A stretch of 63,926 nt of DNA, filler included, from an uncultured Methanosarcinales archaeon (lineage in GTDB: Archaea; Nanobdellota; Nanobdellia; Woesearchaeales; CAZKBD01): assembly GCA_964550945.1 (NCBI GenBank). It is 3 parts of 3 records of this genome, joined end to end, with 100 filler letters (N's around TTAATTAATTAA, not from the genome) between each part and the next. Parts side by side here need not be neighbours in the genome. Positions count along the whole stretch, not along the records: positions 25,896 to 51,280 come from CAZKBD010000019.1; 2 more parts are not named here. One strand, given 5' to 3'. This document shows, piece by piece, positions 30,792 through 49,422 of the stretch (the stretch's first letter is position 1; the number at the start of each line of letters is the position of its first letter). Position numbers and translations under genes: made by a program. The notes below the pieces were generated by a model. That model had not been told where the DNA came from, did no database searches, and was given only the letters and a program-made list of their open reading frames with translations.

Positions 30792-30792
30792 G

Positions 30793-31179: not shown

Positions 31180-31180
31180 T

Positions 31181-31420
31181 CTATTTCTTGCCGTTAGAAG
31201 TTCTGCTAAATAAGATAGCGGTCAATATATTCAATGCCCAAGCCTGAAATACGTTCATATGCATATTTGGCCAGAATTTACCTAAGGTGAAATTCCAAAG
31301 CCACATCACTGGCAAGGCTAGAATAAGGCCTACAATGACACTCAACAGAACAACAATCAATGTAGTGTAGCCTATCTCTATTGCTCTTCTTAACAAAGGG
31401 ATCCTAGTCAAAATACCCAT
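31181..31420 (-). CDS. Small hypothetical membrane protein
   Basis: 79 aa, hydrophobic, PVMWLWN...QAWAL. Confidence 0.6.
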   Translation of the reverse strand: MGILTRIPLLRRAIEIGYTTLIVVLLSVIVGLILALPVMWLWNFTLGKFWPNMHMNVFQAWALNILTAILFSRTSNGKK

Positions 31421-31476
31421 GAGTATATCTATTAAGCTAGGGATATTTAAAGGTTATCATTTTTTAGAGTCAGAAT

Positions 31477-32226: not shown

Positions 32227-32273
32227 AATTGTGCTTTGTATTTAAATAAATTATTGTTTTATAGATATTTAGT

Positions 32274-32978: not shown

Positions 32979-32984
32979 TCTTGA

Positions 32985-34868
32985 TCAGAAAATTTCATTC
33001 TCCTGATTCATTTGCTCTTGCCTTCCAGCACTAACCCATGGATTTAGTTTTGGGGCAAGAGGCCTATGCTCCAGATATTTAGCAACTGCTGTTGATACTA
33101 CTAATATCTTCTCTTTTTTTGAAAGGTTTTTTTTGGTTGATTTTTTCTGCTTCTGCAATTTTTCTATTATCTTGTTATCTTCAATAAAAGAGGTGTGTAT
33201 ATTGCCCCTAGCGAAATTTTCATTGCTTAGAACAAGCTGGTGAAATGGAATTGTTGTTTCAATGCCTTCTATTATGTACTCATTTAATGCTCTTCTTGTC
33301 CTTGCAATTGCCTCTTGCATTGTTTTGCCGTGGCACATCAACTTAGATATTAATGAATCATAAAATGGATTGACTACATGGCCTACATGGCAGCTTGAGC
33401 AAACTCTGATCTCTGGGCCTCCTGGGACTATATAATTTGAAATTGTGCCAATAGACGGCTTAAATTCCTCTGATGGATCTTCTGAGTTTATCCTGCATTC
33501 TATTGCAAAACCAGTGATTTCAACATCTCCCTGGGTGTAAGCTAATTTAGCGCCTGCAGCCAATTTAATTTGTTCTTTGACCAGGTCAACTCCAGTTACC
33601 ATTTCAGTAATACCGTGCTCAACCTGGATTCTTGCATTCATCTCCATGAAAAAGAAATTCCCATTTTTATCAACCAAGAATTCAACTGTTCCTGCTCCTT
33701 CATAGCCAACTGCTTTGGCTGCCTTTATCGCAACCTCACCAAGCTCTTCTCTTAATTCTTTTGTGATTGCTGGTGAAGGGGCTATCTCAATAAGTTTTTG
33801 GTGCCTTCTTTGGATAGAGCACTCTCTTTCCCCTAAATGGAGGGTATTGCCATATTTATCAGACAATATCTGGAATTCTATATGCCTTGGCTTCTCAAGA
33901 TATTTTTCTATGTAAATAGAATCATCATTAAAGGCTGCCTTTGCTTCGGTTTTTACTGCTTCATAAGCTTTTTCTAGTTCGCTCTTTTTTGCTACTAACC
34001 TCATGCCTTTACCGCCACCTCCTGCAACGGCTTTTAGGATTACAGGATAACCAATCTCTCCAGCCATTTTTATGGCTTCTGAGATATTTTGCAAAGGTTT
34101 TACTGCACCAGCTATAACAGGAATTCTTTCTTTTATCATTAATTCCCTGGCTTTAGCTTTATTACCCATTGATTTCAAAGATTCAACGCTTGGGCCTATA
34201 AATACAATTTTCTTTTTTTTACAAAGCTCTGCAAATTCAGCGTTTTCTGCTAGAAAGCCATAACCTGGATGGATAGCATCTGACTTTGATTTTTTGGCTA
34301 TTTTAAGTATCTTTTTTATGTTTAGATAACCATCATTAGAACCTATATTATATGCTTTATTTGCAAACTTAACTGCCAGGCTGTCCTTATCAACTTTTGA
34401 ATATATTACTACAGATTCTATGTTCAGCTCCATACAAGCTCTTATTATCCTAAGAGCAATCTCCCCCCTATTAGCAATCAATATTCTCTTAAAAAGGGGC
34501 TTATCACCCAGGATGCTGTATTCTTTATCTGAGCTATCAGAACCTAAGCCACGAGTTAATAAATCCAGGAATGATTTTGAGGATTTATTCTTAATAACCT
34601 CGTTAAGGCGCCTTTCGTCCAGATGAGGCAATCCTCCTATAACTTTCTTGGTGATTATATCTGCTATGCCTTCCATATCAGGATTATGGAGAAGCTGCTT
34701 ATTTCGCTCTAAGGAAACAATATGGGATCTAACTAAGGATTCTACTTGACTATAGATAAAGGGTATAGATTTCTTTGTTTTTTTAGCTAAATTTTTTACA
34801 AACATGTAGCTAGACTCTAGAGGGGCCAGTAGCTTAGTGACTACCTTGTCAAGTACAGCGCTGCTCAT
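32985..34868 (-). CDS. accC: Biotin carboxylase with a ~120-aa N-terminal extension
   Basis: ILIANRGEIA, IHPGYGFLAEN, GGGGKGMR, RECSIQRRHQK, EMNARIQVEH; C-terminal AVAKYL...NPWVSAGR tail. Confidence 0.93.
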   Translation of the reverse strand: MSSAVLDKVVTKLLAPLESSYMFVKNLAKKTKKSIPFIYSQVESLVRSHIVSLERNKQLLHNPDMEGIADIITKKVIGGLPHLDERRLNEVIKNKSSKSFLDLLTRGLGSDSSDKEYSILGDKPLFKRILIANRGEIALRIIRACMELNIESVVIYSKVDKDSLAVKFANKAYNIGSNDGYLNIKKILKIAKKSKSDAIHPGYGFLAENAEFAELCKKKKIVFIGPSVESLKSMGNKAKARELMIKERIPVIAGAVKPLQNISEAIKMAGEIGYPVILKAVAGGGGKGMRLVAKKSELEKAYEAVKTEAKAAFNDDSIYIEKYLEKPRHIEFQILSDKYGNTLHLGERECSIQRRHQKLIEIAPSPAITKELREELGEVAIKAAKAVGYEGAGTVEFLVDKNGNFFFMEMNARIQVEHGITEMVTGVDLVKEQIKLAAGAKLAYTQGDVEITGFAIECRINSEDPSEEFKPSIGTISNYIVPGGPEIRVCSSCHVGHVVNPFYDSLISKLMCHGKTMQEAIARTRRALNEYIIEGIETTIPFHQLVLSNENFARGNIHTSFIEDNKIIEKLQKQKKSTKKNLSKKEKILVVSTAVAKYLEHRPLAPKLNPWVSAGRQEQMNQENEIF

Positions 34869-34974: not shown

Positions 34975-35475
34975 ATGAAAAAGATAGATGATTTGAAGGA
35001 TGAAAAAGGAATGCTCGATTCCAACGCAATTAAGCAGATAATCCCATACGAGTACCCTTTCTTGATGATAGATAGAGTAATAAGCCTTGATAAGAACAAG
35101 ATTGTGGCAATAAAGAACATAAGTTCTGATGAATGGTTCTTAAGAGGCCATTTTTCTGGGTTTCCAATAATGCCCGGGGCTTTAATAATAGAAGGCGTAG
35201 GACAAGCATCTACTTTACTGGTCAGATACAACCTAGAAGACCACTACACTAAGGATGTTCTTGCTTTTAGGATAAAAGAAGCTAAGTTTTCAGCTCCAGC
35301 ATTCCCAGGAGATCAACTAAAATATGAGGCAGCTTTAATGGGCCAAGATGAGAGAGGAGCTTTATTGCAGGCAAAGGTAATCAAAGAAGAGAAAGTGATT
35401 GCTGAGGCAACATTAATGCTGGCTGTTGTTGACAGGAAGCAGTTTAGGGCCCAACATAGCGCAGCCTACAAATAG
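34975..35475 (+). CDS. fabZ: 3-hydroxyacyl dehydratase, FabZ family
   Basis: PYEYPFLMIDRV, FLRGHF.G.PIMPGALIIEG..Q (catalytic His and Glu), F..P..PGD. Confidence 0.9.
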   Translation: MKKIDDLKDEKGMLDSNAIKQIIPYEYPFLMIDRVISLDKNKIVAIKNISSDEWFLRGHFSGFPIMPGALIIEGVGQASTLLVRYNLEDHYTKDVLAFRIKEAKFSAPAFPGDQLKYEAALMGQDERGALLQAKVIKEEKVIAEATLMLAVVDRKQFRAQHSAAYK

Positions 35476-35483
35476 GTGTTCTT

Positions 35484-36608
35484 ATGTATGTAAAAGGCGT
35501 AGGCATGACTAAGTTTTCAGTAGAGGACAGGGCTAATTACGAGATGGTATACGAGGCAACAGAAGAAGCTCTGGCTGATGCAGATACCTCCATAAAGGAT
35601 ATCAAAGCAATTGTTATCTCCACAGTTGACAGCACAGTTAATGATGAAAAGCAACGCCATTACAGCTCTTTGGTTAGCTCGCTTCTTAAGAAAAAAGTCC
35701 CTATAATAAGAGTGCCTGCTGTATGTGGGGGAGGAGGAGCAGCTTTCTGGACTGCCTTGAGATTGAATTATGACCCCATACTTGTGGTTGGAACAGATAA
35801 GATTGCGTGCAATAAAACTGAAATAATAACAAAAGAGATACTTAGTGCAGCTGACAAGGTATACAGCCAGGAAGAAGGCCTGGTGTTTCCTGGTGAGAAT
35901 GCGCTTCTTGCACAGCAGCATATGCTCCAGTTTGATACAACTGCAGATGATCTGGCATTAATCGCATTCAAGAATCATGAAAATGCTTATCTAAACCCCA
36001 AAGCACATTTTTATAAAAAGAAAGTCACATTAGAAACAATAAAGAATTCTCCTATAGTTGCTTCTCCATTTAGGTTGTTTGATTGCAGCATTAGCGTGAA
36101 TGGCGCTGCTGCTGCTGTTTTGACAAATGAGAAAACAGATGTTGAAGTTATTGGCTCAGGAATGGCAACTGATTATATAATGACTTTTGAAAGGGAAAGC
36201 TTAACTGAGTTAAAGGCAACCAAGCTGGCTGCAAAACAAGCTTATGAGCAGGCAAAGATTGCGCCTAGTGACATTGATGTGGTTGAGGTGCATGATGCTT
36301 TTACAATAATGGAGTTGATGGCGTATGAGGATCTTGGTTTTGTTGAGAAAGGCTATGGCTCTAAATTAGTCAGGGATGGAACAACAAAGCTAGATGGCAG
36401 GCTTCCAGTAAATACTGCCGGTGGTTTAAAGGCAAGAGGCCATCCAATAAGCCCTACTGGAATGGCTCAGATTTATGAGATAGTGAAGCAATTAAGGGGC
36501 GAATGTAAAGAGAGGCAGGTAAAAAATCATAAATATGGGCTTACTCAAAATATTGGCGGAGTTGGAGCTTCAATAACAGTCCATATATTCAAGAAGGCAG
36601 GTGGTTAA
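35484..36608 (+). CDS. Thiolase, archaeal/SCP2-like type, copy 1
   Basis: PAVCGGG (active Cys), N...NPKAH, EVHDAF, GGLKARGHP..PTG, NIGG. Confidence 0.9.
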   Translation: MYVKGVGMTKFSVEDRANYEMVYEATEEALADADTSIKDIKAIVISTVDSTVNDEKQRHYSSLVSSLLKKKVPIIRVPAVCGGGGAAFWTALRLNYDPILVVGTDKIACNKTEIITKEILSAADKVYSQEEGLVFPGENALLAQQHMLQFDTTADDLALIAFKNHENAYLNPKAHFYKKKVTLETIKNSPIVASPFRLFDCSISVNGAAAAVLTNEKTDVEVIGSGMATDYIMTFERESLTELKATKLAAKQAYEQAKIAPSDIDVVEVHDAFTIMELMAYEDLGFVEKGYGSKLVRDGTTKLDGRLPVNTAGGLKARGHPISPTGMAQIYEIVKQLRGECKERQVKNHKYGLTQNIGGVGASITVHIFKKAGG

Positions 36609-37734
36609 ATTGATAGTGAGATGGATATGTAAAAAATGCAACAAAAAATGGATATACCCTATTGAAAGATGCATCTATTGTAAGGATGCGGTTGAAAAGC
36701 AGATAGGCAAAAAAGTGAAAGTTGTTGGGGTAACAAAAATTCTTATACCCTCTCCAGAACACCCTATAATCCCCTATTACGCTTTGATCCTAGAAGATGA
36801 GCACGGCAATAGAATGCCTAAAAAAACAATGAAGGAATATAAACTAGGAGAGAGCTATAGATGGGAAAAAAGTGATGATGAAAGCGCTGTTTCTATCATT
36901 AAAATAAAATATGATTTTTATGAAGCAATAAAACATGCTTTGCAATTAATCGGGGATATTGATGTTAACCCAAGCTCTAAAGTGCTAATCAAGCCAAACA
37001 TCATGGCAGATGCTTATTCATACCAGGCAATAACCACTAACCCTAAAGTTGTAAAGGTGTTGATTGAATACCTTTTTGAGAAAGGAGTTAAAAAAGAGAA
37101 TGTCACGATAGCTGAGCAAACCCAATTTGGCGAATTTGAAAAAGCAGCCAATAAATCAGGATTTAGCAGCTTAGCCAATGAATTAGGGGTTAAGCTAGTT
37201 GATTTAGGAAAAACGGAATTTATTGAAAAAGAGTCTGGAGGCTTTAAATTCAAGATTTCAAAAGAATTGTTTGATAAAGATTTAGTGATCAATGTTCCTG
37301 TTATGAAAACCCATCTTCTTTTGGGCATTTCAGGAGCTTTAGAGAATATGATCAGGGTTGTTTCTACAGAGACATACAAGGCATTGGAAAAAAACCCTAA
37401 AGTTTTGGAGGCAATTGCCTATCTTCATAAACTATTGCCAAAATACCTTGCAATAGGAGATGCTTCTATCGGTATGCAGGGAAACGGGCCTTTAATGTAT
37501 GGCGAGCCTGCTTTCCTTAACATGATACTATCTTCAAGGGATCCAGTTGCTTTAGATACTGTGTTTAAGGAAATAGGCTTGTTAGGAAAAGCCCCTTTAT
37601 TGGAGATAGCTGAAAGAATTGGAATTGGAACTTCTGATTTAAGGGAAATAATAAATGTTGGAGATGAATTAGATGCCTGCAGGCGTGAGTTAAAGCCTGC
37701 GATTGGTTCAAAGCTAATCAAACAAAATGGTTAA
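36601..37734 (+). CDS. DUF35-like (Zn ribbon plus OB-fold) domain fused to a DUF362 domain
   Basis: N-terminal CKKC...YP...CIYC and PYYALILEDEHG; C-terminal VLIKPN, INVPVMKTH..GISGALEN, SRDPVALD. Confidence 0.75.
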   Translation: MVKLIVRWICKKCNKKWIYPIERCIYCKDAVEKQIGKKVKVVGVTKILIPSPEHPIIPYYALILEDEHGNRMPKKTMKEYKLGESYRWEKSDDESAVSIIKIKYDFYEAIKHALQLIGDIDVNPSSKVLIKPNIMADAYSYQAITTNPKVVKVLIEYLFEKGVKKENVTIAEQTQFGEFEKAANKSGFSSLANELGVKLVDLGKTEFIEKESGGFKFKISKELFDKDLVINVPVMKTHLLLGISGALENMIRVVSTETYKALEKNPKVLEAIAYLHKLLPKYLAIGDASIGMQGNGPLMYGEPAFLNMILSSRDPVALDTVFKEIGLLGKAPLLEIAERIGIGTSDLREIINVGDELDACRRELKPAIGSKLIKQNG

Positions 37735-37930
37735 TATAAGATTTGATATTGAAAGATGTAAAGATTGCAAGCTTTGTGTAGGTGTCTGCCCTCAAAAAAA
37801 TATAATGATCTCAAAAAAATTGAACAAAAATGGTTATCATTATGCTGAAATAATTGATAAAGAAAAATGCACTGGCTGCGGCTTTTGCTTCCAGATGTGC
37901 CCTGATCTGGTTATTGAGGTTGAGAAATGA
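37727..37930 (+). CDS. 2[4Fe-4S] ferredoxin / delta subunit of 2-oxoacid:ferredoxin oxidoreductase
   Basis: CKDCKLCVGVCP and CTGCGFCFQMCP. Confidence 0.92.
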   Translation: MVNIRFDIERCKDCKLCVGVCPQKNIMISKKLNKNGYHYAEIIDKEKCTGCGFCFQMCPDLVIEVEK

Positions 37931-38982
37931 GCAAAATCCTATTAAAAGGAAATGAAGCAATGGCTGAAGCTGCTATTCAGGCTGGCTGCAGATTTTATGC
38001 AGGTTATCCTATAACTCCTCAAAATGAGGTTCCAGAATATATGTCAAAAAGAATGCCTGAAGTTAAAGGGATTTTTATCCAGGCAGAATCTGAATTATCT
38101 GCAATTAATATGGTGTTCGGAGCATCTGCGGTTGGCACTAGATGCATGACCTCTTCTTCTTCTCCTGGAATAAGCTTGAAGCAAGAAGGGATCAGCTATA
38201 TTGCTGCTGCAGAACTTCCTTGTATTATAGCCAATGTACAAAGAGGAGGCCCGGGATTAGGCAATATAAGGGCTTCTCAGGGAGATTATTTCCAAGCTGT
38301 TAAAGGAGGAGGCCATGGCGATTATAAATTGATAGTTCTGGCGCCTTCTACTGTACAGGAGACTTATGATCTAACAATGAATGCTTTTGATTATGCTGAC
38401 TATTACAGAAATCCTGTTATGATCTTGAGCGATGGAATTTTGGGGCAGATGGCTGAGCCAGTAGAGATAAAACAATACGAGCCAATACTAAAGATGCCAA
38501 AAAAAGAGTTTATTCTTGATGGCTGCAAGGGAAGGAAAGCAAGGGTCATCAAAACATTGTTATTAAGCCCTCCTGACTTGCTGATAAAACATAATATCCA
38601 TTTGAAAGAAAAGTATGGCAAGATAGAAAATGAGCTCAACTTAGCAGAAGAATACGAAACAGAAGATGCTGATTTGGTAATAGCTGCATATGGCATTACA
38701 GGAAGAATAGCAAAAGGTGCGGTTGATTTGGCTAGAGATAATGGGATGAAGGTTGGCTTGATAAGGCCGATAACATTGTGGCCATTTCCAAAAAAAGCGT
38801 TCATAAGGTTAGCAGACAAGGCAAAAAGGTTCCTTGTTGTTGAGATGTCAAACGGCCAATTTATCGAGGATGTTAAACTAGCGATTGAGTGCAAAAAACC
38901 AGTTGAATTTTTAGGCATAGGCGGCGGATGGTATCCTAGCATTGAAAATATATTTGAAAAGATCAAAGAGGTTTACAAATGA
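37927..38982 (+). CDS. 2-oxoacid:ferredoxin oxidoreductase alpha-type subunit (2-ketoisovalerate/VorB-like)
   Basis: [52 protein letters not shown]. Confidence 0.9.
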
Positions 38983-39701
38983 AAAGACCCCTAAGCCTTT
39001 ATGATATCCCTATGAGTTATTGCGCTGGCTGCGGCCATGGCATTGCTCACAGATTAGTTGCAGAAGTGATTGATGAATTAGGCATTAGAGAGAAAACAAT
39101 TGGAACTGCTCCTGTTGGCTGCGCTGTCTTGCTTTATAATTATTTTAATTGCGATATCATTGAATGCGCTCATGGCAGGATCCCTGCTGTTGCAACAGCT
39201 ATGAAGAGGATATTGCCAGACAGGATTATTTTTACTTATCAGGGAGATGGTGATTTGGCTGCGATTGGCACTAATGAAACAATACATGCTGCAAATCGTG
39301 GAGAAAATATAACTATAATCTTTATTAATAATGCGGTTTATGGAATGACTGGCGGCCAGATGGCTCCTACCACATTGATAGGCCAAAAAACAACCACAAC
39401 TCCTAATGGCAGAGGCAAAAATCAAGAAGGCCCTCCTCTTAAAGTTTGCGAGCTTTTATCTGCATTAGATGGTGTTGCTTATCTTGAAAGGGTTGCTGTA
39501 AGCACGCCGGCAGATGTTATCAAGGCAAAAAAAGCAATAAAAAAAGCTTTTGAAACTCAGTTAGCTGGAAAAGGGTTTTCTTTAGTTGAAGTGCTATCAA
39601 TGTGCCCAACAGACTGGAAACTAAGCCCTGAAAAGGCAGTTGATTTTGTCAATAAAGAGATGAAAAAGGTTTTTCCGCTTGGTGTGTTTAAGGACAAATA
39701 A
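38979..39701 (+). CDS. 2-oxoacid:ferredoxin oxidoreductase TPP-binding beta subunit
   Basis: [20 protein letters not shown]...NN..YGMTGGQ, CPT.W. Confidence 0.92.
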
Positions 39702-39702
39702 A

Positions 39703-40239
39703 ATGCAAAGAAAAATAATAATTGCCGGTTTTGGAGGCCAAGGAGTTGTATTAGCTGGAAATATATTGGCAAGAGCCTGTATTTATGAGAACAAACATGT
39801 AACGGCAATGGTGTCTTATGGAGTTGAGATGAGGGGAGGAACAGCTAATACGTCTATAGTAATCTCAGATAAGGCTATCGCAAGCCCGGTTGTTGAGAAT
39901 CCGGATATCGCCATAATACTGAATCAAAACTCACTAGACAAATTTGAAGAAACAATAGCAAAAAACGGCCTTTTGGTATTGAACTCTTCATTAATAATCA
40001 GAAACCCAAAAAGAGCTGATTTGGATATTGTGAGCATTAATGCAACTGAAGCTGCAGATGAGCTTGGAAATACTAAAATTGCGAATATAATAGCCCTTGG
40101 AGCATTTATCAGAAAAACAAACCTGCTAAGAATGGAAAACATTGAAAAAGCCATTGAAGAGATATTTTCAGAGAAAAAACAAGAGCTTATTGAATTAAAT
40201 AAAAAAGCATTGCAAAAAGGTGCTGAGCTATGTTCATAA
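39703..40239 (+). CDS. 2-oxoacid:ferredoxin oxidoreductase gamma subunit
   Basis: AGFGGQG, SYGVEMRGGTA, NIIALGA. Confidence 0.92.
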   Translation: MQRKIIIAGFGGQGVVLAGNILARACIYENKHVTAMVSYGVEMRGGTANTSIVISDKAIASPVVENPDIAIILNQNSLDKFEETIAKNGLLVLNSSLIIRNPKRADLDIVSINATEAADELGNTKIANIIALGAFIRKTNLLRMENIEKAIEEIFSEKKQELIELNKKALQKGAELCS

Positions 40240-41363
40240 AAGGGGTTGGCTGCATACCATATAGGATCCACAGCAGGAATTCTCAGCTTTTAGCATATAG
40301 CGCTATTTCAGATGCCTTAAGCGATGCAGACATTTCAATAAGCAAGATAGATGCAATAGTTTGCTCAACTCTGGAATGGTTTTACACAGGCGAGTTTCAA
40401 AGGCATTTTGCATCTGTGCTCTCAGGCATATTGAAAACAAATATCCCTATAATAACTGTTCCTGCTGCATGCGCTGGCGGTGGAACAGCTTTGTGGACTG
40501 CAAACAGGCTTGGTTTTGATAATGTGCTGGTTGTTGGTGTTGAGAAATTGCATGGCCATACTGCAAACAGCCAGAAGATAACCCAGGAATTTGGAATGGC
40601 AGCAGAATCAAAATGGGAGCAGCCTGAAGGCATTAATTTTCCTGGGGAAAACGCTTTAGTGGCGCAGGCATATCTGGAAAAATTTCCAGAAACAACAATG
40701 GATGACTTAGCATTAATCGCATTCAAGAATCATGAAAATGCTTATCTTAATCCTCATGCTTATTTCTATCAAAAAAAAGTTAGCTTAGAAGAGATAAAGA
40801 CTTCGCCCGTGGTCACCTCTCCTTTGAGAGTATTTGACTGCAGTATCAGTGTTGATGGCGCAACTGCTGTAGTCATAACAAAAGATAAGACCGACGTTGA
40901 GATTGCTGCTTCTTCAAGCTGCGCAGATTATCTGCCTCCATTTGAAAGAGATGATTTAACTGCATGGGATGGAACGATTATAACATCCACTGAGGTTTTT
41001 GAACAAGCTGGCCTTGAAAGAAGCGATATAGATTTTGCAGAGGTGCATGATGCTTTTACAATTGTTGAGCTGATGGCATATGAAGATATTGGCTTTTGCA
41101 GAAAAGGAGAAGCATATAAGGCGGTTAGAGATGGCGTTTTCAATATTGATGGAAAGCTGCCTATTAATGTGTCTGGCGGACTTAAGGCAAAGGGCCATCC
41201 TGTTTCAGCGACTGGACTGGGCATGGTCTATGAGATTGTAAAGCAGATGAGAAAAGAAGCAGGCGATAGGCAGCTTACAAAAACAAGAAATGCGCTAGTG
41301 CATAATATTGGCGGCGCTGGCGGCACAACAACAATGAATATACTTAGAAAAGTTAACTACTGA
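40230..41363 (+). CDS. Thiolase, archaeal/SCP2-like type, copy 2
   Basis: PAACAGG, GVEK, EVHDAF, SGGLKAKGHPVSATG, HNIGG. Confidence 0.9.
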   Translation: MFIKGVGCIPYRIHSRNSQLLAYSAISDALSDADISISKIDAIVCSTLEWFYTGEFQRHFASVLSGILKTNIPIITVPAACAGGGTALWTANRLGFDNVLVVGVEKLHGHTANSQKITQEFGMAAESKWEQPEGINFPGENALVAQAYLEKFPETTMDDLALIAFKNHENAYLNPHAYFYQKKVSLEEIKTSPVVTSPLRVFDCSISVDGATAVVITKDKTDVEIAASSSCADYLPPFERDDLTAWDGTIITSTEVFEQAGLERSDIDFAEVHDAFTIVELMAYEDIGFCRKGEAYKAVRDGVFNIDGKLPINVSGGLKAKGHPVSATGLGMVYEIVKQMRKEAGDRQLTKTRNALVHNIGGAGGTTTMNILRKVNY

Positions 41364-43075
41364 TTTGTTCTTTGTTTCTTAAAAAAATGTTCTAACCTTG
41401 ACTTATAATCGCTCTGGTTGTATAGCTTATACCATCTACTGGCTATCCTTCCGCCCCCTGTCTTAATCGCAAGATTTCTCCACTTTCTTTTTATATCCCT
41501 CCATGCGCTTAATAATGGCGTATAAAATAGGTTCCTTATCTCGTCTGATGGCACATCCATAAAACTTTGATTCCTGAGCCTGCTAAATGTATTTTTAACA
41601 AACATTTTTGAATAAAAAATACTAAATTGTAATGGAAAGCCTAAGGTGCCATTCCATAACCAGTTGATCCAGTTACCGTAGTTTATACTGCTCTCAATGA
41701 AATTTCCTAAGTAAACCCTTTTCATAAGAAGGGTTGGAAGTTTTTGAAGCTCGTAAGGGTCTATGTCCTCTGGCTTGGGGTTGTAACAAAGCCACAATCC
41801 ATCATATTTATCCCAATTAACCATCTCTAATGGAAGCAATCGATTTTCTTTTTCCAGCTTCTCTCTTAACACAGAGCCTGGCAAAGGCAGCGTTTTCATT
41901 ATCTGGAAGCTGTCAATTTTCGCTCTTTTGATAAATCGCATATATGTTTTTGCCTTTTGTTTAAGTGTAAGAGCTGATTTGTATTTGGAATCGCTAAATG
42001 AGGGGTATCCAAATATAAACATGCCGTGGATATAGAATAGCTTTGATAATTTTCTTGATCTCCTTTCTAATAACTCTGCTGTCACTCCTTTTCTCATTGA
42101 TTTAAGCTCTTCATTTATTGGGCTTTCATAGCCTATGCAAAGAGATTTTACTCCTGCATATTTCATAGCTTCCAATAGCTCGTCGTTTTCAGCTATCTCT
42201 GTCCTTACTTGCACATTTAAGCGGATTTTCTTCTTAAACTGCCGTTTATGGTCTCCAATCATTCTACAAAGGTTTATTGTGTCCTGGATGTCCTGGGCAA
42301 AATTATCATCTGTAAAAAAGAATTCTTTGTATCCAAGGTCGCTGTATTTTATGATGTTTTCTACAACCTTATAAGGGGACATGGATTTATAGCTGCCATA
42401 TAAGTCATGCACTACACAGAACTCGCAGTTAAAATTGCAGCCTCTTCCTCTACTGATTGGAATATGCGTGAATTTCTTGTTTAGATGCCGGACTATTGTT
42501 AAATCAGGCGATTCAAACAAATTTAGGTTATTTATGGGCTCTCTTCTGCCTGTGAAAACATATTCGCCTTTCTCATTAATGAAGCTTATCCCTGGTATAT
42601 TATCAAGAGGGTTTCCTTCTAGCATAGCCTCTACAACTTCTTTCGCGGTTTCTTCTCCCTCTCCATGAACAACTATGTCAACTCCTTTACTTAGCGCTTC
42701 TTTTGGCAGGGCATCTACATGGCTGCCTCCTGCTACAACTATGCTGCCAAATTTCTTGTAGGTTTGCGCTATTGAATACATCCTAAGTATTGAACTTGAC
42801 ATGCCCCCATATAAGAACGCAAATTTTGCCGGCTTTTGCCTTTGCAAAAATTCATGGTCAGGCATTCCAATAAAATCTAATGGCCCCCGGTAGTTGTTTT
42901 CATCTATGCAATAGCTATCATATTTCTTATCTATCTTAAGGTTTGTAAGAACAGACAATATTCCAACTGGAGGCATTACAACCCAAGAAAATATGTTATT
43001 TTTGGTATGCTGGGGATATTGAGGAATCACGCCAATAATAGTTGTGCTTGGTATTCCAGAATCCTTAAAGCTCAT
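41357..43075 (-). CDS. Cobalamin-binding radical SAM enzyme with extended C-terminus
   Basis: AGGSH, VHGEGE, RGCNFNCEFC, FTDDNF, PLPGS, W..YDG; likely start MSFKDSG at 43075. Confidence 0.88.
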   Translation of the reverse strand: MSFKDSGIPSTTIIGVIPQYPQHTKNNIFSWVVMPPVGILSVLTNLKIDKKYDSYCIDENNYRGPLDFIGMPDHEFLQRQKPAKFAFLYGGMSSSILRMYSIAQTYKKFGSIVVAGGSHVDALPKEALSKGVDIVVHGEGEETAKEVVEAMLEGNPLDNIPGISFINEKGEYVFTGRREPINNLNLFESPDLTIVRHLNKKFTHIPISRGRGCNFNCEFCVVHDLYGSYKSMSPYKVVENIIKYSDLGYKEFFFTDDNFAQDIQDTINLCRMIGDHKRQFKKKIRLNVQVRTEIAENDELLEAMKYAGVKSLCIGYESPINEELKSMRKGVTAELLERRSRKLSKLFYIHGMFIFGYPSFSDSKYKSALTLKQKAKTYMRFIKRAKIDSFQIMKTLPLPGSVLREKLEKENRLLPLEMVNWDKYDGLWLCYNPKPEDIDPYELQKLPTLLMKRVYLGNFIESSINYGNWINWLWNGTLGFPLQFSIFYSKMFVKNTFSRLRNQSFMDVPSDEIRNLFYTPLLSAWRDIKRKWRNLAIKTGGGRIASRWYKLYNQSDYKSRLEHFFKKQRTNQ

Positions 43076-43214
43076 TATTGCTAATATAATACTGTTAGTT
43101 ATATAAGCTTTATGATTCATTTGCCTTAATCTAACTATCAAAAGAAGGGCCAATTTTGTAGAAAGTTTTAAAAAAAGCCAGTGTTTCTTGCTTATAATAA
43201 GGGGGTTGAATATT

Positions 43215-43967
43215 ATGAATAACACGAAAGATATGGGTGGGAAAGTTGCATTAATAACAGGCGCTTCTCAAGGCATTGGGAAGGCTATTGCCATTGCATT
43301 GGCAAAAGAAGGAGCCAGCATAATCATTAATGACATAGCGCCAGCAAAAGAGCAGGCAGAGAAATTTGCTGAGGAAATAAAATCAATGGGTGTTGGGTCA
43401 ATTGTTATTCTTGGAGATGTCTCAAAATTCGAAGACTGCAAAAAGATGGCTGAAGAAGCGCAGGCAAAATTCCAAAAAGTTGACATTTTGGTCAATAATG
43501 CAGGAATCACAAAAGACCGGACATTAAAAAAGATGACTCCAGAGGAATGGAACGCTGTGATAAACATAAATCTTACAGGAGTTTATAATGTAACTCATAG
43601 CATTCTGCCATTGATTCCAGAAGGCGGAAGGATTATAAGCCTATCCTCTATTGTAGGGATTGGTGGAAATTTCGGCCAGTGCAATTATTCAGCAACAAAA
43701 GCAGGGATCATTGGCCTGACAAAATCCTTGGCAAGAGAAGTTGGAAAAAACAAGATAACAGTTAATGCAATAGCTCCTGGATTCATTAAAAGCAAAATGA
43801 CAGACCAGATACCTTTAATCATGTTAGACAAAATACTGGAAGCAATACCTATGCAGGAAATGGGAACCCCAGAAGATATTGCTAATCTGGCTGTTTTCCT
43901 TGCTTCAGACAAAGCAAAGTACATATCAGGTCAGGTTATAAGGGTTGATGGGGGGATTATTATATAA
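43215..43967 (+). CDS. fabG: 3-oxoacyl reductase (FabG/PhaB-type SDR)
   Basis: TGASQGIG, NNAGITKD, GNFGQ.NYSATKAG, VNAIAPGFI, VDGG. Confidence 0.92.
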   Translation: MNNTKDMGGKVALITGASQGIGKAIAIALAKEGASIIINDIAPAKEQAEKFAEEIKSMGVGSIVILGDVSKFEDCKKMAEEAQAKFQKVDILVNNAGITKDRTLKKMTPEEWNAVININLTGVYNVTHSILPLIPEGGRIISLSSIVGIGGNFGQCNYSATKAGIIGLTKSLAREVGKNKITVNAIAPGFIKSKMTDQIPLIMLDKILEAIPMQEMGTPEDIANLAVFLASDKAKYISGQVIRVDGGIII

Positions 43968-44043
43968 TGTTATTTGCGTTATATAACGGTATTTTACAAT
44001 AAATCTTATAAATGGCTATAAGATTCTAAAATAGGGGGGCATT

Positions 44044-45201
44044 ATGGATTTTAACTTCACACCAAAGCAATTGATGATAAAGAGAATGATTACTGAATTT
44101 GCTAATAAAGAGATAGTTCCATTTGCCGCAGATATAGATCATGAGGAGATATTTCCAGAAACACAGATAAAAAAGCTCGCAAAACTAGGCGTTATGGGTA
44201 TGTCTATTCCCCAAAAATATGGTGGAGCTGAGCTTGATAATATTTCTCAGACAATAATAATGGAAGAGGTAAGCAGGGCATGCGCTTCAACATCTGTAAC
44301 AATGGGAGCCCATACTTCTCTTTGCTGTTATCCTATTGTAAATAATGGCACTGACGAGCAAAAAGAAAGGTTTTTGCCAAAACTAGCTTCAGGCGAATAT
44401 TTAGGAGCGTTTGCATTAACAGAGCCAGCTGCTGGCTCAGATGCAGTCAATGTCCAGACAACTGCAATGAGAGACGGAGATGAATACATAATAAATGGGA
44501 ATAAGATCTTTATCACAAATGGCGGAAAGGCTGACCTCATCAATATTGTGGCAACAACTGATAAGAGCGCAAAGCATAACGGCCTTAGCGTATTTGCAAT
44601 CGAAACAAAAAAAGCCCGGGGATTCAGCCTGGGAAAGAAAGAAGACAAGCTTGGTCTAAGGGGTTCCAACACCCAAGAGCTTGTTTTCCAGGATATGAGA
44701 GTTCCAAAAGAGAATCTGATAGGTGGTGAAGAAGGTGAAGGGTTTAAGATTGCAATGGGCGTATTCAATTCTGGAAGAATAGGAATAGGCGTTCAAGGAG
44801 TTGGAATTGCGCAGGCAGCATTGGACGAATGCATAAAATATGTTAAAGAACGCGAACAGTTTGGAAGAAAGCTGTTCAAGTTCCAGGCAATAAGCTTTAT
44901 GCTTGCAGAGATGGCAACAAAGATAGATGCAGCGCGTTTGCTTTGCTTAAAAGCTGCTCATGTAAAAGACCAGAAAAAGAATTATATAAAAGCTGCTGCA
45001 ATGGCAAAGCTTTATGGCTCAGACGTTGCAATGGAAGTTACAAGAAAAGCAATACAGATACATGGCGGCTATGGATTTATCAAAGACTATCCCCTAGAAA
45101 GATTCTATCGTGATGCCAAGATAACTGAAATATATGAGGGAACATCTGAGATACAAAAGCTGATTATAGGAAATGAGCTTTTGGGAAAAGGAATAGAATG
45201 A
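44044..45201 (+). CDS. Acyl-CoA dehydrogenase (butyryl-CoA dehydrogenase-like)
   Basis: FALTEP.AGSD, NG.KIFITNG, KLG.RGS.T, REQFG, QIHGGYG, IYEGTSEIQ. Confidence 0.95.
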   Translation: MDFNFTPKQLMIKRMITEFANKEIVPFAADIDHEEIFPETQIKKLAKLGVMGMSIPQKYGGAELDNISQTIIMEEVSRACASTSVTMGAHTSLCCYPIVNNGTDEQKERFLPKLASGEYLGAFALTEPAAGSDAVNVQTTAMRDGDEYIINGNKIFITNGGKADLINIVATTDKSAKHNGLSVFAIETKKARGFSLGKKEDKLGLRGSNTQELVFQDMRVPKENLIGGEEGEGFKIAMGVFNSGRIGIGVQGVGIAQAALDECIKYVKEREQFGRKLFKFQAISFMLAEMATKIDAARLLCLKAAHVKDQKKNYIKAAAMAKLYGSDVAMEVTRKAIQIHGGYGFIKDYPLERFYRDAKITEIYEGTSEIQKLIIGNELLGKGIE

Positions 45202-45998
45202 ACATTGTCGTTTGCATCAAGCAGGTGCCAGACACAACAGAAGTGAAGATAGACCAGAAAACAGGCCGCTTAATAAGAGAGGGTGTTCCATCTATAATAA
45301 ATCCTGAAGACAAAAATGCATTGGAAGAAGCATTACGAATAAAAGAAAAGATTAATTCTCAGGTTACTGTGGTCACAATGGGCCCTCCACAAGCAGAAGA
45401 TGCTTTAAGAGAAGCACTTGCAATGGGAGCTGATGAAGGCATTCTACTTTGCGATTTCAAGTTTGCAGGCTCTGATACCTGGGCAACTGCAAATGCGCTA
45501 AAAGCAGGCATTAAACAGATCGGAAAATATGATTTGATACTTTGCGGAAGGCAGGCAATTGATGGTGATACTGCTCAAGTTGGCCCGCAATTGGCTGAAG
45601 CGCTGCAAATACCCCAGATAACTTATGCTCAAAAGATAGAGATAGACAAGATCAACAATAAAAAAGTAAAGGTAGAAAGGGAGATGGAAGATGGCTATGA
45701 AATAATCGAGTCTAGTCTTCCTGTGCTTGTAACATGCACCCATAGCATAAATCATCCCAGGTATCCTTCTCTAAACGGGATTGATAATTCATTTAAGGCA
45801 GAGATAAAAAAGTGGACAGCAGCAGACATAAATGCAGTTGACTCTGAGATAGGCATTAACTCCAGCCCAACAAAGGTAAAGAAAACATTTAGCCCGCAGG
45901 CAAAAGGCCAGGGAGTTATTTTAAATGGCAGCATAAAAGAGATGGCACATGAGCTGATTGAAAAGCTGAAAGAAAAGGAAATAATCCAAAAATTCTAA
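45198..45998 (+). CDS. etfB: Electron transfer flavoprotein beta subunit
   Basis: VCIKQVPDT, REGVPSIINP.D, GSDTWAT, GRQAIDGDTAQVGP. Confidence 0.95.
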   Translation: MNIVVCIKQVPDTTEVKIDQKTGRLIREGVPSIINPEDKNALEEALRIKEKINSQVTVVTMGPPQAEDALREALAMGADEGILLCDFKFAGSDTWATANALKAGIKQIGKYDLILCGRQAIDGDTAQVGPQLAEALQIPQITYAQKIEIDKINNKKVKVEREMEDGYEIIESSLPVLVTCTHSINHPRYPSLNGIDNSFKAEIKKWTAADINAVDSEIGINSSPTKVKKTFSPQAKGQGVILNGSIKEMAHELIEKLKEKEIIQKF

Positions 45999-45999
45999 A

Positions 46000-47165
46000 A
46001 TGGCCAAGATCAAGCTAAAAGACAATTATCCTGGATTTTCAATGATAATAGATGGAATCACATTAAACAAAGGAGACGATTTTGCAGAAGTCAATGAAAG
46101 CTTGGAACTTCAAAATGCGATTGACAGCGATTATGTTGAAGCCTATGAAGAAAAAAAAGAGATTAAAGAGGAGAAGGTTAAAGATGGTGAAGAAGTCTGG
46201 ATTTTTGCAGAGCAGCGAAATAATAACCTATCAAGAGTTGTATTTGAATTATTGGGAAAAGCGCAAGAGCTTGCAAACAAATTGAATGTAAAGGTTGCTG
46301 CTATATTGGCTTGCGAATCAGACAGCGGCCTTTCAAAATCTCTAGCAGAGTATGGCGCTGATAAAGTATACTTAATTGAGAGCAGGCTCCTTAAGGATTA
46401 TACTACGGGATTATATGCTAAGGTAATATCTGAACTGATAAATAAAGAGGAGCCCCAGATAATGGTCTATGGCGCTACAAATATTGGGAGGGATTTGGCC
46501 CAAGAGTTGCCCAAAGGATAACAACCGGCCTTACTGCTGATTGCACTGGCCTGGACATAGATGAAGACGGCTTGCTTTTGCAGACAAGGCCTGCTTTTGG
46601 GGGTAATATAATGGCTCAGATAAAATGTCCGAACCATAAGCCTCAGATGTCAACTGCCAGGCCGGGAGTTTTCAAGATAGCTAAGCCGAACACAAAAAGG
46701 GAAGCAGAGATAATCCGGATAAAGCCGAACTTAACTGAAAATGACTCTCTAACAACGATAATTGAGATAATAAAATCCAAAAAGAAAAAAGTAAATCTTG
46801 AGGAAGCTAAAATAATTATCTCCGGCGGAAGAGGGTTGTGCAATAAGGAAAATTTTAATCTTATAGAGGAGCTTGCATCACTGATAGGGGCAGAAGTAGG
46901 TGCTTCAAGGGCAGTTGTTGATGCAGGATGGATTGCAAAAGACCACCAGGTTGGCCAGACAGGGAAAACAGTAAGGCCAAAGCTCTACATTGCATGCGGG
47001 ATATCTGGAGCAATACAACATAGGGCAGGAATGCAAAACTCGGATATGATAATCGCCATAAACAAAGATCCAAATGCAATGATATTTAGTGCAGCTGATT
47101 ACGGGATTGTTGCTGATGTAAATCAATTCCTGCCAGCGCTGATAAAAGAGCTAAAAGGTGAATAA
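46000..47165 (+). pseudogene. etfA: Electron transfer flavoprotein alpha subunit, split by a 1-nt frameshift near 46500 (real lesion or sequencing error)
   Basis: ORF1 ends ...[11 protein letters not shown]; adding one C to the run GGCCCAAGA restores [21 protein letters not shown], joining QTRPAFGG...SGGRG...GASR...QVGQTG...GISGAIQH. Confidence 0.85.
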
Positions 47166-47815
47166 TGATATACCTAGGTATTAGACTGACATTAGCTCCA
47201 TTTGTTAATCTGTGGGTAAGAAATATTTCTGGATTAGAAAACCTAAAAAAAGAAGATTCTTTCATATTTGCCTGCAATCATGGGAGTTTTGCAGAAGACT
47301 TGATATTGCCATGCAATATCATCCCTTATATCAATAAATCTGTACATATCTACTGCAATGATAGGTTCTATAAGCATTATCCCATAAGAAAATTTTTAGA
47401 GTATGGAAGATGCATTCCAATAAGGGTGGGAGAGAAAAGTGAAGAGGCAAAAAGAGTTAATGAAGGGGCATTTAATCTGGCGCTAGGTTATTTAAAAAAT
47501 AAAGAGCCCATAGGCATTTTTCCAGAAGGCCACAGAAGCCATGACGGCAGCATTATAGAAGCTAGAACCGGCATTGCAAAATTGGCTTTGACTGCCAAAG
47601 TTCCTGTCATTCCAATAGGAGCAATAGGCACTTATGAGATTTTGCCGAAAGGCTCAAAATTTCCTAAATTTAAAAGATGCGATATAAATATTGGAGGCCC
47701 CATCTACCTAGACAAGTACTTCGGAAAGGAGAATGACAAAAAGATTTTAAAAGACGTAACTGTTATTATCATGAAAGAGATAGCAAAATTAGCTAAGAAA
47801 GAGTATAACTATTAA
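47165..47815 (+). CDS. PlsC-family (lyso)phospholipid/glycerol-phosphate acyltransferase, copy 1
   Basis: NHGSFAED (variant of HxxxxD), IFPEGHRS, TG.A.LA...KVPVIP. Confidence 0.85.
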   Translation: MIYLGIRLTLAPFVNLWVRNISGLENLKKEDSFIFACNHGSFAEDLILPCNIIPYINKSVHIYCNDRFYKHYPIRKFLEYGRCIPIRVGEKSEEAKRVNEGAFNLALGYLKNKEPIGIFPEGHRSHDGSIIEARTGIAKLALTAKVPVIPIGAIGTYEILPKGSKFPKFKRCDINIGGPIYLDKYFGKENDKKILKDVTVIIMKEIAKLAKKEYNY

Positions 47816-47816
47816 A

Positions 47817-48446
47817 ATGGTCCACCCAATAGGCAAGCGGATTTTTAAGGCCATAATACGGCCTTATATAAAAAAAATAAACGGATTAGAGAATATACCC
47901 AAAGACCTCAATTTCATAATTGCTGCTAACCACTCCAGTTATATAGATCATCTGATATTAGCCACAATATTTGTTAACCGCCTTAATAAGCGGATGCATT
48001 TTTTGGCAAAAAAAGAGCATTTTGATGGCTGGTTCCAAAGAAGGTTTCATAAATGGGCAGATGCTATTCCAATTGACAGAGAAAGTGGCGGTAAAGAGGC
48101 GTTGGCGTGGGCAATAACTGCCCTCAATAGTGGAAAGATAGTCTCAATTTATCCAGAAGGGACAAGAACATTAAATGGAAGGATACAAAAAGGAAAAACT
48201 GGTGTTGCGAGGCTTGCTCTGGCTGCAAAAGTGCCTGTATTGCCTATTGGGCTTGTTGGAACATTTGATATCATGCCTAAAGGAAAATTTTTTCCAAGAT
48301 TCAAAAGATGCACTGTAAATATAGGAAAGTTAATGTACTTTAAAGAATATTATGGAAAATGTGACGATTATGACATATCAAGAAAGGTTACTGACAGGAT
48401 AATGAAAGAGATAGCAAGACTATCAAACCAAGAACAAGGTTATTAA
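47817..48446 (+). CDS. plsC: 1-acyl-sn-glycerol-3-phosphate acyltransferase family, copy 2
   Basis: NHSSYID (HxxxxD), FLAKKE, PIDR, YPEGTR, KTGVARLAL..KVPVLP. Confidence 0.9.
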   Translation: MVHPIGKRIFKAIIRPYIKKINGLENIPKDLNFIIAANHSSYIDHLILATIFVNRLNKRMHFLAKKEHFDGWFQRRFHKWADAIPIDRESGGKEALAWAITALNSGKIVSIYPEGTRTLNGRIQKGKTGVARLALAAKVPVLPIGLVGTFDIMPKGKFFPRFKRCTVNIGKLMYFKEYYGKCDDYDISRKVTDRIMKEIARLSNQEQGY

Positions 48447-48447
48447 A

Positions 48448-49422
48448 ATGGGAAAGATATCAGTCATTGGAGCTGGAGGATGGGGTACTGCATTATCAGT
48501 TGTGCTCTCAGAGAATAATAAGGTAAACCTATGGGTTCGTGAGCCGGAATTGTTTAAGGTTATGAAGAGTGAGAATGAAAATAAATTGTTTCTTCCAGGA
48601 GTAAAAATTTCGGGCTCAGTTGTATTGAGCAATGATCTGGCTGAGGTTGTAACTGGATCCGATATTATTTTTATGGCTGTTCCTACCCAATTTGTCAGGG
48701 GTGTTGCAAAACAAATATCGAAATATGTTAAAAAGGAAGCTGTTCTTGTCAGTGTTGCCAAAGGCCTTGAAGAGAATAGCTATAAAAGAATGTCTGAAGT
48801 GATTGAGGAAGAAACGAATGGAAAGATGGTTGCGTTGTCTGGCCCAAATCACAGCGAAGAGGTAGGCAGAAAAATACCAACTGCGACAGTAATTGCCTCA
48901 AAAAATGATAGCGCATTGCTTGATGTTAAGAAAGCCTTATCTACCCCTTATTTTAAAGTATACCCTCATAATGATATTGTTGGTGTAGAGATATGCGGCG
49001 CAATAAAGAATATAACTGCAATAGCAGCAGGCATATGTGACGGGCTGGGCTTCGGGGATAATTCAAGAGCCAGCATAATAACTCTTGGCTTGACTGAGAT
49101 GAATAGGTTTGGAAGATATTTTGGCGCTGAGCAAAAAACAGTTTATGGCCTTGCTGGTGTTGGTGATTTAGTCGCTACATGCACAAGCGTTCATTCAAGA
49201 AATAGGTTTGTGGGCCAAAAGATAGCTGAAGGAAAATCTTTTGAGGAAATACAGAAAGAGATGCATGGAATGGTGGCTGAGGGGATAAGAACCACTAAAG
49301 CGGTCTATGAATTCAGCCAAAAGAATGGCGTAGATATGCCTTTGACAACTCAGGTCTACAAAGTATTGTATGAACGAAAAGAGCTAAAAAAAGCAATTAA
49401 GGACCTGATAATGTTGATTTGA
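48448..49422 (+). CDS. gpsA: NAD(P)H-dependent glycerol-3-phosphate dehydrogenase
   Basis: GAGGWGTAL, KGLE, LSGPNH..EV, GAIKN..AIA.G, GLAGVGDL.ATC.S.HSRN, AEG. Confidence 0.95.
   Translation: MGKISVIGAGGWGTALSVVLSENNKVNLWVREPELFKVMKSENENKLFLPGVKISGSVVLSNDLAEVVTGSDIIFMAVPTQFVRGVAKQISKYVKKEAVLVSVAKGLEENSYKRMSEVIEEETNGKMVALSGPNHSEEVGRKIPTATVIASKNDSALLDVKKALSTPYFKVYPHNDIVGVEICGAIKNITAIAAGICDGLGFGDNSRASIITLGLTEMNRFGRYFGAEQKTVYGLAGVGDLVATCTSVHSRNRFVGQKIAEGKSFEEIQKEMHGMVAEGIRTTKAVYEFSQKNGVDMPLTTQVYKVLYERKELKKAIKDLIMLI

Follow-up and report, generated by a model that had tools for sequence, protein, structure and literature searches.

An operon of Woesearchaeales archaea that probably encodes an ACP-free, CoA-based fatty-acid synthase linked to glycerol-3-phosphate lipid genes

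Background

The closest described relative of the system studied here is a fatty-acid synthase of Sulfolobus acidocaldarius that uses no acyl carrier protein (ACP). This thiolase (KT)/DUF35 synthase was reconstituted by Schmerling et al. (bioRxiv 10.1101/2024.07.05.601840), and the accessible sections of their preprint give its parts as Saci_1121/1120 (KT/DUF35), Saci_1104, Saci_1085 and Saci_1115. We analyzed a 63,926-nucleotide stretch of DNA (hereafter, the window) from an uncultured archaeon of the order Woesearchaeales, and specifically a gene cluster at positions 29256-49422, which we call the operon. The operon probably encodes an ACP-free, coenzyme A (CoA)-based fatty-acid synthase that feeds sn-glycerol-3-phosphate (G3P) ester lipids. 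It is a variant of the already described Sulfolobus synthase, and is itself new. The main text of that preprint makes no mention of Woesearchaeota, DPANN, FabZ or PlsC, and a literature search, with subscription journals mostly outside its coverage, found no description of the operon.

Judging from genes, the operon shares with the Sulfolobus synthase, as presented in the accessible sections of the preprint, an archaeal-type thiolase with a DUF35 partner, a FabG-like (R)-reductase, a hot-dog dehydratase and the predicted use of CoA thioesters with no ACP or ketoacyl-ACP synthase (KAS). However, the operon has two thiolases, and its DUF35 domain is fused to a DUF362 domain. Where Sulfolobus has MaoC and a medium-chain dehydrogenase/reductase (MDR), the operon has a true FabZ and Bcd-EtfAB or FabI. 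It also adds a linked carboxylase with BirA, a 2-oxoacid:ferredoxin oxidoreductase (VOR) and a plsC-plsC-gpsA trio, in a host genome without GGGPS.

Several other systems share parts with the operon. The thiolase class and the DUF35 fold are those of the thiolase/DUF35/HMG-CoA synthase complex of the mevalonate pathway (6ESQ), but the host genome lacks HMG-CoA synthase (HMGS), and its isoprenoids would come from a full methylerythritol phosphate (MEP) gene set. With bacterial type II fatty-acid synthesis the shared parts are FabZ, FabG, in some members FabI, an acyl-CoA carboxylase, GpsA, the PlsC family, PgsA, PssA and Psd; however, no KAS, FabD, linked ACP, PlsX, PlsY or PlsB was found, and a CarS-like enzyme takes the place of CdsA. 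Clostridial butyrate/caproate elongation (Thl, Hbd, Crt, Bcd-EtfAB; 5OL2) likewise performs a thiolase condensation on CoA and has a closely related Bcd-EtfAB. Unlike it, the operon has (R)-type FabG and FabZ instead of Hbd and Crt, exchanges Bcd-EtfAB for FabI, and is tied to lipid genes. Nealsonbacteria, which belong to the Candidate Phyla Radiation (CPR), are reported in the accessible passages of PMC7242380 to have type II homologues without ACP machinery, and an ACP-independent route is raised there as a possibility; they differ in having both PlsY and PlsC, and those passages propose no condensing enzyme.

Components of the operon have been noted before. In the passages available, papers on Woesearchaeota subgroup J (PMC8421398; PMC8204110; PMC10936187) report Bcd-EtfAB, MEP genes, GpsA and FabG/FabI/FabZ, interpret Bcd-EtfAB as serving redox balance and the Fab genes as an ACP pathway, and consider membrane lipid synthesis probably impossible. 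Those passages describe neither the operon nor its thiolase core.

Results and discussion

A conserved operon in part of the Woesearchaeales

The window consists of three contigs joined by N spacers, and the whole cluster lies within the middle one (25896-51280). Its convergent boundary is a gene for archaeal ribosomal protein uS2 (49423-50025, minus strand; TIGR01012 above cut-off), so this contig is archaeal. The host genome is 1.97 Mb and 92.5% complete. FabZ of the operon type was detected in 36 of 401 Woesearchaeales genomes sampled, including one weak match, in genome G033 (30% identity, on a 2.7-kb contig beside a KAS-like open reading frame (ORF)), which was not counted among the positives. 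Among ten named FabZ-bearing genomes, eight are Nanoarchaeota/Woesearchaeota and two are labelled Methanosarcinales. We compared 30 genomes with the operon FabZ, including the host (FabZ+), with 50 genomes without it (FabZ-). The latter were drawn from the negatives among genomes G001-G060, with four genomes less than 80% complete and G033 dropped, and five of the FabZ-bearing genomes enter only the 401-genome tally. The panel genomes are incomplete (81-100%), and because they are kin we claim no test statistic for these counts. Synteny counts below refer to testable loci in the 29 other FabZ+ genomes, and metagenome counts to the best 80 of 121 loci.

The genes form a real, conserved operon. 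The thiolase lies directly 3' of fabZ in 29 of 29 related genomes and the fusion gene is present in 26 of 26, which argues that the cluster is not a product of chance; the second thiolase is likewise present in 25 of 25. On the lipid side, plsC adjoins gpsA in 25 of 25 loci, with uS2 at most 2.6 kb from gpsA in 22 of 25. On the other side, the biotin carboxylase is divergent from fabZ, at most 2.5 kb away, in 22 of 27. In the metagenomes, the thiolase precedes the fusion gene in all 43 testable loci, with fabZ before it in 28 of 29. Intergenic gaps along the operon range from -38 to +76 bp. In one relative (G101), the fusion protein and FabG are joined in a single 743-aa ORF (L044:7478-9709), an arrangement not seen among the metagenome loci. 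All named homologues of the fusion protein are from Woesearchaeota or Nanoarchaeota. An atlas search returned DUF362 clusters only, a plasmid search gave only weak DUF362 matches, and no holder of the cluster is listed in RNA data.

An initial annotation of the window had described the interval 34975-47165 as a hybrid chain-elongation cycle. The fabZ, thiolase, fabG, bcd, etfB and etfA genes that it named are all where it placed them, but the unit is larger, extending to the carboxylase and birA genes (29256-34868) and to plsC-plsC-gpsA (47165-49422). Its gene list omitted the four VOR genes and an opposite-strand B12-binding radical SAM gene. The four steps of its elongation cycle are indeed present, although it overlooked the linked carboxylase, which points to malonyl-CoA.

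Based on these genes, we propose a cycle that would run in the synthetic direction. Acetyl-CoA (from Acs or pyruvate oxidoreductase) or a VOR-derived branched acyl-CoA would prime the chain, and the two archaeal-type thiolases, held by the DUF35-fold/DUF362 protein, would condense the primer with a two-carbon unit; the linked carboxylase most likely supplies malonyl-CoA as the extender. FabG would then yield (R)-3-hydroxyacyl-CoA and FabZ would dehydrate it. Reduction of the enoyl-CoA would fall to Bcd-EtfAB, with NADH and probably coupled to the reduction of ferredoxin, and to FabI in other members. Acyl-CoAs, presumably of a length suited to lipids, would pass directly to PlsC-family enzymes acting on G3P from GpsA, after which a CarS-like enzyme, PgsA, PssA/Psd and a UgtP-like glycosyltransferase would produce bacterial-type lipids.

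FabZ, FabG and the condensing enzymes

The FabZ-type (R)-3-hydroxyacyl dehydratase (34975-35475, plus strand) scores above the PRK00006 cut-off. The initial annotation reported an intact His/Glu pair, and both residues (His59, Glu73) are invariant in all 35 relatives aligned. The closest solved FabZs are ACP-dependent enzymes, and we infer that the operon's FabZ acts on CoA esters. A loss of ACP-binding basic residues was considered as an argument for this; Lys/Arg still precedes the Pro of FxxP in 6 of 35 relatives. We did not count it, because ACP-dependent FabZs vary too and the contact residues lack a source. The FabG-type ketoacyl reductase (43188-43967, plus strand, probable start 43215) has Ser154/Tyr167 and an Asp after strand 2. 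It scores 296.6 against a TIGR01830 cut-off of 297.75, and is the only short-chain dehydrogenase/reductase (SDR) of FabG type in the host genome; it, too, would act on CoA esters.

Thiolase A (35484-36608, plus strand) is of the archaeal/SCP2 type, with Cys81, His270 in HDAF and His320 in GHP, and thiolase B (40230-41363, plus strand), of the same type, has Cys81, His273 and His323. Both thus carry a Cys-His-His set, which we take to resemble that of KAS II, and the Cys, HDAF and GHP are present in 59 of 59 aligned thiolase rows. Two relatives (G187 and G351) have separate, canonical HMGS-thiolase-DUF35 operons whose thiolases are only 35% like those of the operon studied here, so the operon thiolases are a distinct set. 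A cluster look-up for 10 distant thiolases returned only Njordarchaeia/Korarchaeota or nothing named, and thus does not show sharing with CPR either way.

The protein encoded between thiolase A and the VOR genes (36601-37734, plus strand) is a fusion of a DUF35-fold domain (residues 1-90, CxxC...CxxC) and a DUF362-LarA-fold domain, and is presumed to be a scaffold that would bring the thiolases into a complex. The fusion protein is below the threshold of the Pfam DUF35 model (PF01796), and a profile search of solved sequences with it gave no match. We therefore placed its N-terminal domain by fold and profile comparison. In an AF2 model (pLDDT 91.5), residues 1-88 match BbsA, ChsH2, 6ESQ_F and PhlB (Foldseek E 5e-5 to 9e-3), with middling VIA Z-scores of 5.6-6.8, and residues 101-371 match LarA-type folds (Z 16.6-19, 13% identity). 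Alignment by hhalign of the fusion profile to canonical DUF35 gave E 2e-4, whereas none of four controls did better than 0.19. A single-sequence fold of the N-terminal domain was poor (pLDDT 51) and was not used. All four cysteines of the DUF35-fold domain are kept in 56 of 75 fusion homologues; in the LarA-fold domain Lys236 is near invariant, while His238 occurs in only 30 of the 75. The thiolases are of archaeal type, as first annotated, but their DUF35 partner is a divergent Zn-ribbon/OB domain fused to a DUF362/LarA fold. No function for DUF362 was found among the literature matches listed. The idea that DUF362 is a missing reductase was dropped, given that FabI was found and that long and short forms do not track Bcd.

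Bcd-EtfAB and FabI as alternative enoyl reductases

The Bcd-type acyl-CoA dehydrogenase (44044-45201, plus strand; Glu365 kept) has chain C of Clostridioides difficile 5OL2 as its best solved match (435 bits). EtfB (45198-45998, plus strand) is of clostridial type, matching 6FAH CarD with 302 bits and 5OL2 with 283 bits versus 105 for the human protein. EtfA (46000-47165, plus strand) has PF01012 and PF00766, so that the FAD-binding domain is present, and its best match is 5OL2 chain A. All three are closest to 5OL2 and to Acetobacterium-type Car complexes, which we take to be electron-bifurcating. This agrees with the earlier description of a Bcd-like enzyme with clostridial-like EtfAB, for which the best solved matches are 5OL2 and 6FAH. 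In the host assembly, a single base is missing near 46498 and splits etfA, probably through an error of assembly: the base is present in a contig from a public run (depth 4.5, possibly the source sample), and of 20 related loci, some of which share a genome, 19 carry the gene at full length and the 20th is cut by the locus edge. In G101, EtfA has an N-terminal ferredoxin domain where others carry a cysteine-free domain.

Of the 30 FabZ+ genomes, 14 have Bcd only, 14 have FabI only, two have neither and none has both. The FabI assignments derive from a distinct, high-scoring SDR group that occurs in 14 of 16 Bcd-less genomes and in none of the 14 Bcd genomes. Five of the 14 SDR-group genomes were scanned, and all match FabI best, below curated cut-offs; the other nine assignments rest on common sequence features, and lower-scoring SDRs of Bcd genomes lay outside the one-by-one check. 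FabK was considered as a further alternative, but gave only weak partial matches, in all 30 genomes. A tree built from the operon proteins of 29 genomes, in which several nodes have weak support, shows at least three changes of the Bcd/FabI state. Since Bcd-EtfAB is an energy-conserving complex that FabI can replace, its most plausible role is to catalyze the enoyl-reductase step in an anabolic cycle. The exchange thus strengthens the anabolic role proposed initially, although Bcd-EtfAB is one of two alternative reductases and not a fixed part of the cycle.

The four-subunit VOR-type oxidoreductase (37727-40239, plus strand; PRK07119 VorB above cut-off) comprises delta (37727-37930), alpha (37927-38982), beta (38979-39701) and gamma (39679-40239) subunits. 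It is found in 9 of 25 relatives, all of which are Bcd genomes, and likely supplies primers. The Asp after strand 2 of FabG, presumably a mark of NADH use, is present in 13 of 13 Bcd genomes versus 4 of 13 others. Together, the restriction of VOR to Bcd genomes and the Asp pattern suggest that the Bcd form is an NADH/ferredoxin version for anoxic members. For the Bcd-EtfAB of its four metagenome-assembled genomes, PMC8421398 doubts bifurcation in the passages available.

Loci of the FabI type (L014:16540-18252, L048:2677-4797, L050, L125) often encode a family III CoA-transferase and a SAM methyltransferase, the latter in some cases joined to a second FabG. These additions occur in 16 of the 80 metagenome loci and may reflect methyl-branching of chains; the methyltransferase has no useful solved match.

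The linked carboxylase and the extender unit

Divergent from fabZ, with 106 bp between them, is a biotin carboxylase gene with an N-terminal extension (32985-34868, minus strand; TIGR00514 accC above cut-off), followed by birA, encoding biotin-protein ligase (32274-32978, minus strand; PF03099 and PF02237). Beyond these lie a single-chain acyl-CoA carboxylase carboxyltransferase of PccB/AccB type (29256-30791, plus strand; PF01039, 618 bits; best solved matches PccB/AccB) and a biotin carboxyl carrier protein (30727-31179, plus strand; PF00364, with an AMK biotinyl motif). The gene between those for the biotin carrier and BirA (31181-31420, minus strand) encodes a conserved 79-aa membrane protein with no Pfam match; most related loci have it at this position, with proteins that are 40-66% identical.

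The carboxyltransferase occurs in 29 of 30 FabZ+ genomes versus 0 of 50 FabZ- genomes. Its Ile405 aligns with residue 422 of Streptomyces PccB, and each of the 24 related sequences seen has Ile there too. We assume the rule that Ile rather than Asp at this position admits acetyl-CoA. In five genomes, including the host, no mutase and no HMGS (PF01154) was found; HMGS occurs in three of the 80 metagenome loci. Since no KAS, mutase or other outlet was found, the thiolases would be the only destination left for malonyl-CoA. A carboxylase supplying malonyl-CoA would imply that at least one thiolase is a decarboxylating condensing enzyme, and whether a thiolase uses malonyl-CoA as its extender is, on these genes, a question that we judge could go either way.

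ACP machinery

KAS was found in 0 of 30 FabZ+ genomes and in 1 of 50 FabZ- genomes. The latter, G026, has its KAS genes at loci L070 and L071 and has no operon-type FabZ. Neither ACP nor KAS was found in the host genome, where an ACP profile gave nothing credible and Escherichia coli FabD, FabH, FabF, AcpP, PlsX, PlsY, PlsB and UbiA queries had no match; an E. coli FabI query there retrieved FabG only. Thus, by E. coli query of the host genome, no enzyme was found for loading malonate on ACP. PP-binding matches are present in 5 of 30 FabZ+ versus 8 of 50 FabZ- genomes, and AcpS in 7 of 30 (including the host) versus 6 of 50; 22 of the 30 FabZ+ genomes have neither. The AcpS matches examined lie in FkbH or AMP-ligase islands, which are as common without the operon. 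The metagenome loci hold no ORF that best matches acpP, fabD, fabF or fabH.

Crotonase was found in none of the same five genomes, and 3-hydroxyacyl-CoA dehydrogenase gave one strong match, in G115 only, with weak Rossmann matches elsewhere and none real in the host. No long-chain acyl-CoA ligase was found in the host, whose sole AMP-binding enzyme is an acetyl-CoA synthetase (Acs). The absence of ACP, FabD, FabH/F, FabI, crotonase and (S)-3-hydroxyacyl-CoA dehydrogenase, initially noted for the window, therefore holds genome-wide, with the qualification that the genome-wide search for ACP, AcpS and KAS did find an AcpS on another contig. A full ACP/FabD/FabF set elsewhere in the genome would have undermined the CoA-based synthase initially suggested. 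None was found, and this, with the mutual exclusion of FabI and Bcd, supports that suggestion.

Lipid end use

The operon continues into two PlsC-family acyltransferase genes and gpsA. The first PlsC (47165-47815, plus strand; PF01553), a candidate sn-1 acyltransferase, has HX4E where relatives have HX4D. The second (47817-48446, plus strand; PF01553, TIGR00530 92.6 bits) has HX4D. GpsA, an NAD(P)H-dependent G3P dehydrogenase (48448-49422, plus strand), scores above the PRK00094 cut-off. The coupling of these genes to the cycle indicates its end use and thereby backs the biosynthetic role proposed initially. GpsA is present in 30 of 30 FabZ+ versus 15 of 50 FabZ- genomes, and a CarS-like gene in 27 of 30 versus 21 of 50.

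Elsewhere in the host genome, contig C21 (1095-6195; L119) encodes a CarS-like protein, DUF362-ferredoxin, a PHP phosphatase, PlsC, a UgtP-like glycosyltransferase, a further PlsC and PgsA, bringing the PlsC family to four genes in total, and contig C147 encodes PssA and Psd. DUF362 genes thus sit in both host lipid clusters. In one relative (G015), a desaturase gene adjoins gpsA. Because no PlsB, PlsX, PlsY or true CdsA was found in the host genome, we infer that a PlsC paralogue, using acyl-CoA, performs sn-1 acylation and that the CarS-like enzyme synthesizes CDP-diacylglycerol.

On the archaeal side, contig C1 of the host (L118:5267-16139) has the full MEP set, a prenyl diphosphate synthase and an adjacent geranylgeranyl reductase-like (GGR-like) gene. 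The G1PDH family (PF13685) has no match in the host, nor does UbiA (DGGGPS), for which only the E. coli query was used. For GGGPS (PF01884), 22 of the 80 genomes gave only partial matches of at most 28 bits, none of them true; a partial PcrB match in the host was rejected and is, in our reading, a HisA-like ORF. It is thus plausible that G3P esters are the only glycerolipids that the host's gene set can make.

PMC8421398 holds, in the passages available, that Woesearchaeota are probably unable to make membrane lipids; the operon would provide a plausible full route to bacterial-type lipids. Of the 401 genomes of the order that were sampled, 35 would have this route, and no archaeal backbone enzymes were found in the host. 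Such a route would be a naturally occurring example of the change from archaeal to bacterial membranes that the origin of eukaryotes requires. A bolder reading is that G3P fatty-acyl esters are the only membrane lipids made, that the thiolases are malonyl-CoA-dependent, decarboxylating elongases, that bifurcating Bcd-EtfAB serves as a long-chain enoyl reductase and that CarS acts as a CDP-diacylglycerol synthase. We hold this combination to be doubtful, if conceivable. Were it true, an archaeal clade would have crossed the lipid divide; both a malonyl-CoA-using thiolase and a biosynthetic role for a bifurcating enoyl reductase would be new to enzymology, and such enzymes could be useful for engineering CoA-based chain elongation.

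Alternative explanations

It is important to consider the points that weigh against an ACP-free synthase for membrane lipids. The thiolase motifs HDAF and QNIGG match those of 7YVY, an ordinary acetyl-CoA acetyltransferase. We therefore rejected these motifs as a sign of decarboxylation, and the thiolase sequences give no other. Archaeal thiolases are described as non-decarboxylative (PMC3533463), and in the accessible sections of 10.1101/2024.07.05.601840 the stand-alone Sulfolobus thiolase did not use malonyl-CoA. One metagenome locus (L217:8838-13069) has a thiolase-fusion-thiolase series followed by HMGS, with no fabZ upstream. Two FabZ+ genomes, as noted above, have neither enoyl reductase. 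GGGPS is missing from all 80 genomes, whether or not they have the operon, and its lack is therefore no distinctive trait of operon genomes. Finally, the host AcpS gene is followed by a truncated FkbH-like gene where a 2.4-kb contig (C152; L139:1234-2418) ends, and in G015 the corresponding island continues into a small ACP; the host may therefore hold an unassembled ACP. The AcpS-FkbH island of the host has a glycosyltransferase context.

This last point bears on an ordinary ACP-dependent pathway, in which ACP and its loading enzymes were missed as unassembled or divergent and the thiolases stand in for KAS on ACP. FabZ, FabG and FabI are ACP enzymes in bacteria, and AcpS occurs in the host and six more of the 30 genomes. 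However, both AcpS and ACP are missing from most FabZ+ genomes, genomes without the operon have AcpS just as often, and neither FabD nor a credible ACP was found in the host, which makes this explanation highly unlikely. Somewhat easier to entertain, yet still unlikely, is a cycle that makes short or special chains, or extends chains acquired from a host organism, for acylation of proteins or glycans or for minor lipids, with the bulk membrane scavenged. The general view of DPANN is that they obtain lipids from hosts, the Sulfolobus system yields only trace-level C4-C10 chains, C8-C10 included, in the accessible sections of the preprint (10.1101/2024.07.05.601840), Bcd is closest to short-chain enzymes among solved structures, the acyl-CoAs from VOR are short and branched, and many related loci hold a YbgC-type thioesterase. 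The invariable plsC-plsC-gpsA coupling, the full headgroup gene set, the G015 desaturase and the lack of a long-chain acyl-CoA ligase for importing chains all argue for lipid synthesis instead.

Two catabolic explanations share the difficulty that FabI can replace Bcd-EtfAB. A fermentation or redox module (a butyrate or branched-chain amino acid route with Bcd-EtfAB and VOR), with the lipid genes as mere neighbours, would suit the clostridial-type Bcd/EtfAB and the occurrence of VOR only with Bcd. It is also how Huang et al. 2021 understood the Bcd-EtfAB of these archaea, and PMC8421398, in the passages available, puts EtfAB/Bcd in redox balance. Yet half of the genomes swap Bcd-EtfAB for FabI, a reductase with which no energy is conserved, the cluster is accompanied by a carboxylase that consumes ATP, and crotonase and (S)-dehydrogenase are missing, so we regard such a module as quite improbable. 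An (R)-specific beta-oxidation of fatty acids from a host organism would account for the thiolase, acyl-CoA dehydrogenase and ETF, and beta-oxidation has been reported for DPANN. We consider it extremely improbable, however, in view of the FabI substitution, the carboxylase, GpsA/PlsC and the missing long-chain ligase.

Other features of the window and host genome

Within the operon, on the opposite strand, is the B12-binding radical SAM gene (41357-43225, minus strand; PF04055 and PF02310). It is not a conserved part, being found at this position in 0 of 29 relatives, and the host genome has about 10 related radical SAM genes. On another contig of the window, a large surface-glycan locus (872-24496) includes glycosyltransferases of families 2 and 9, epimerases and radical SAM/SPASM genes. 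Elsewhere in the host genome (C86:3620-5656), the beta subunit of a pyruvate:ferredoxin oxidoreductase contains an intein that bears a LAGLIDADG-like domain.

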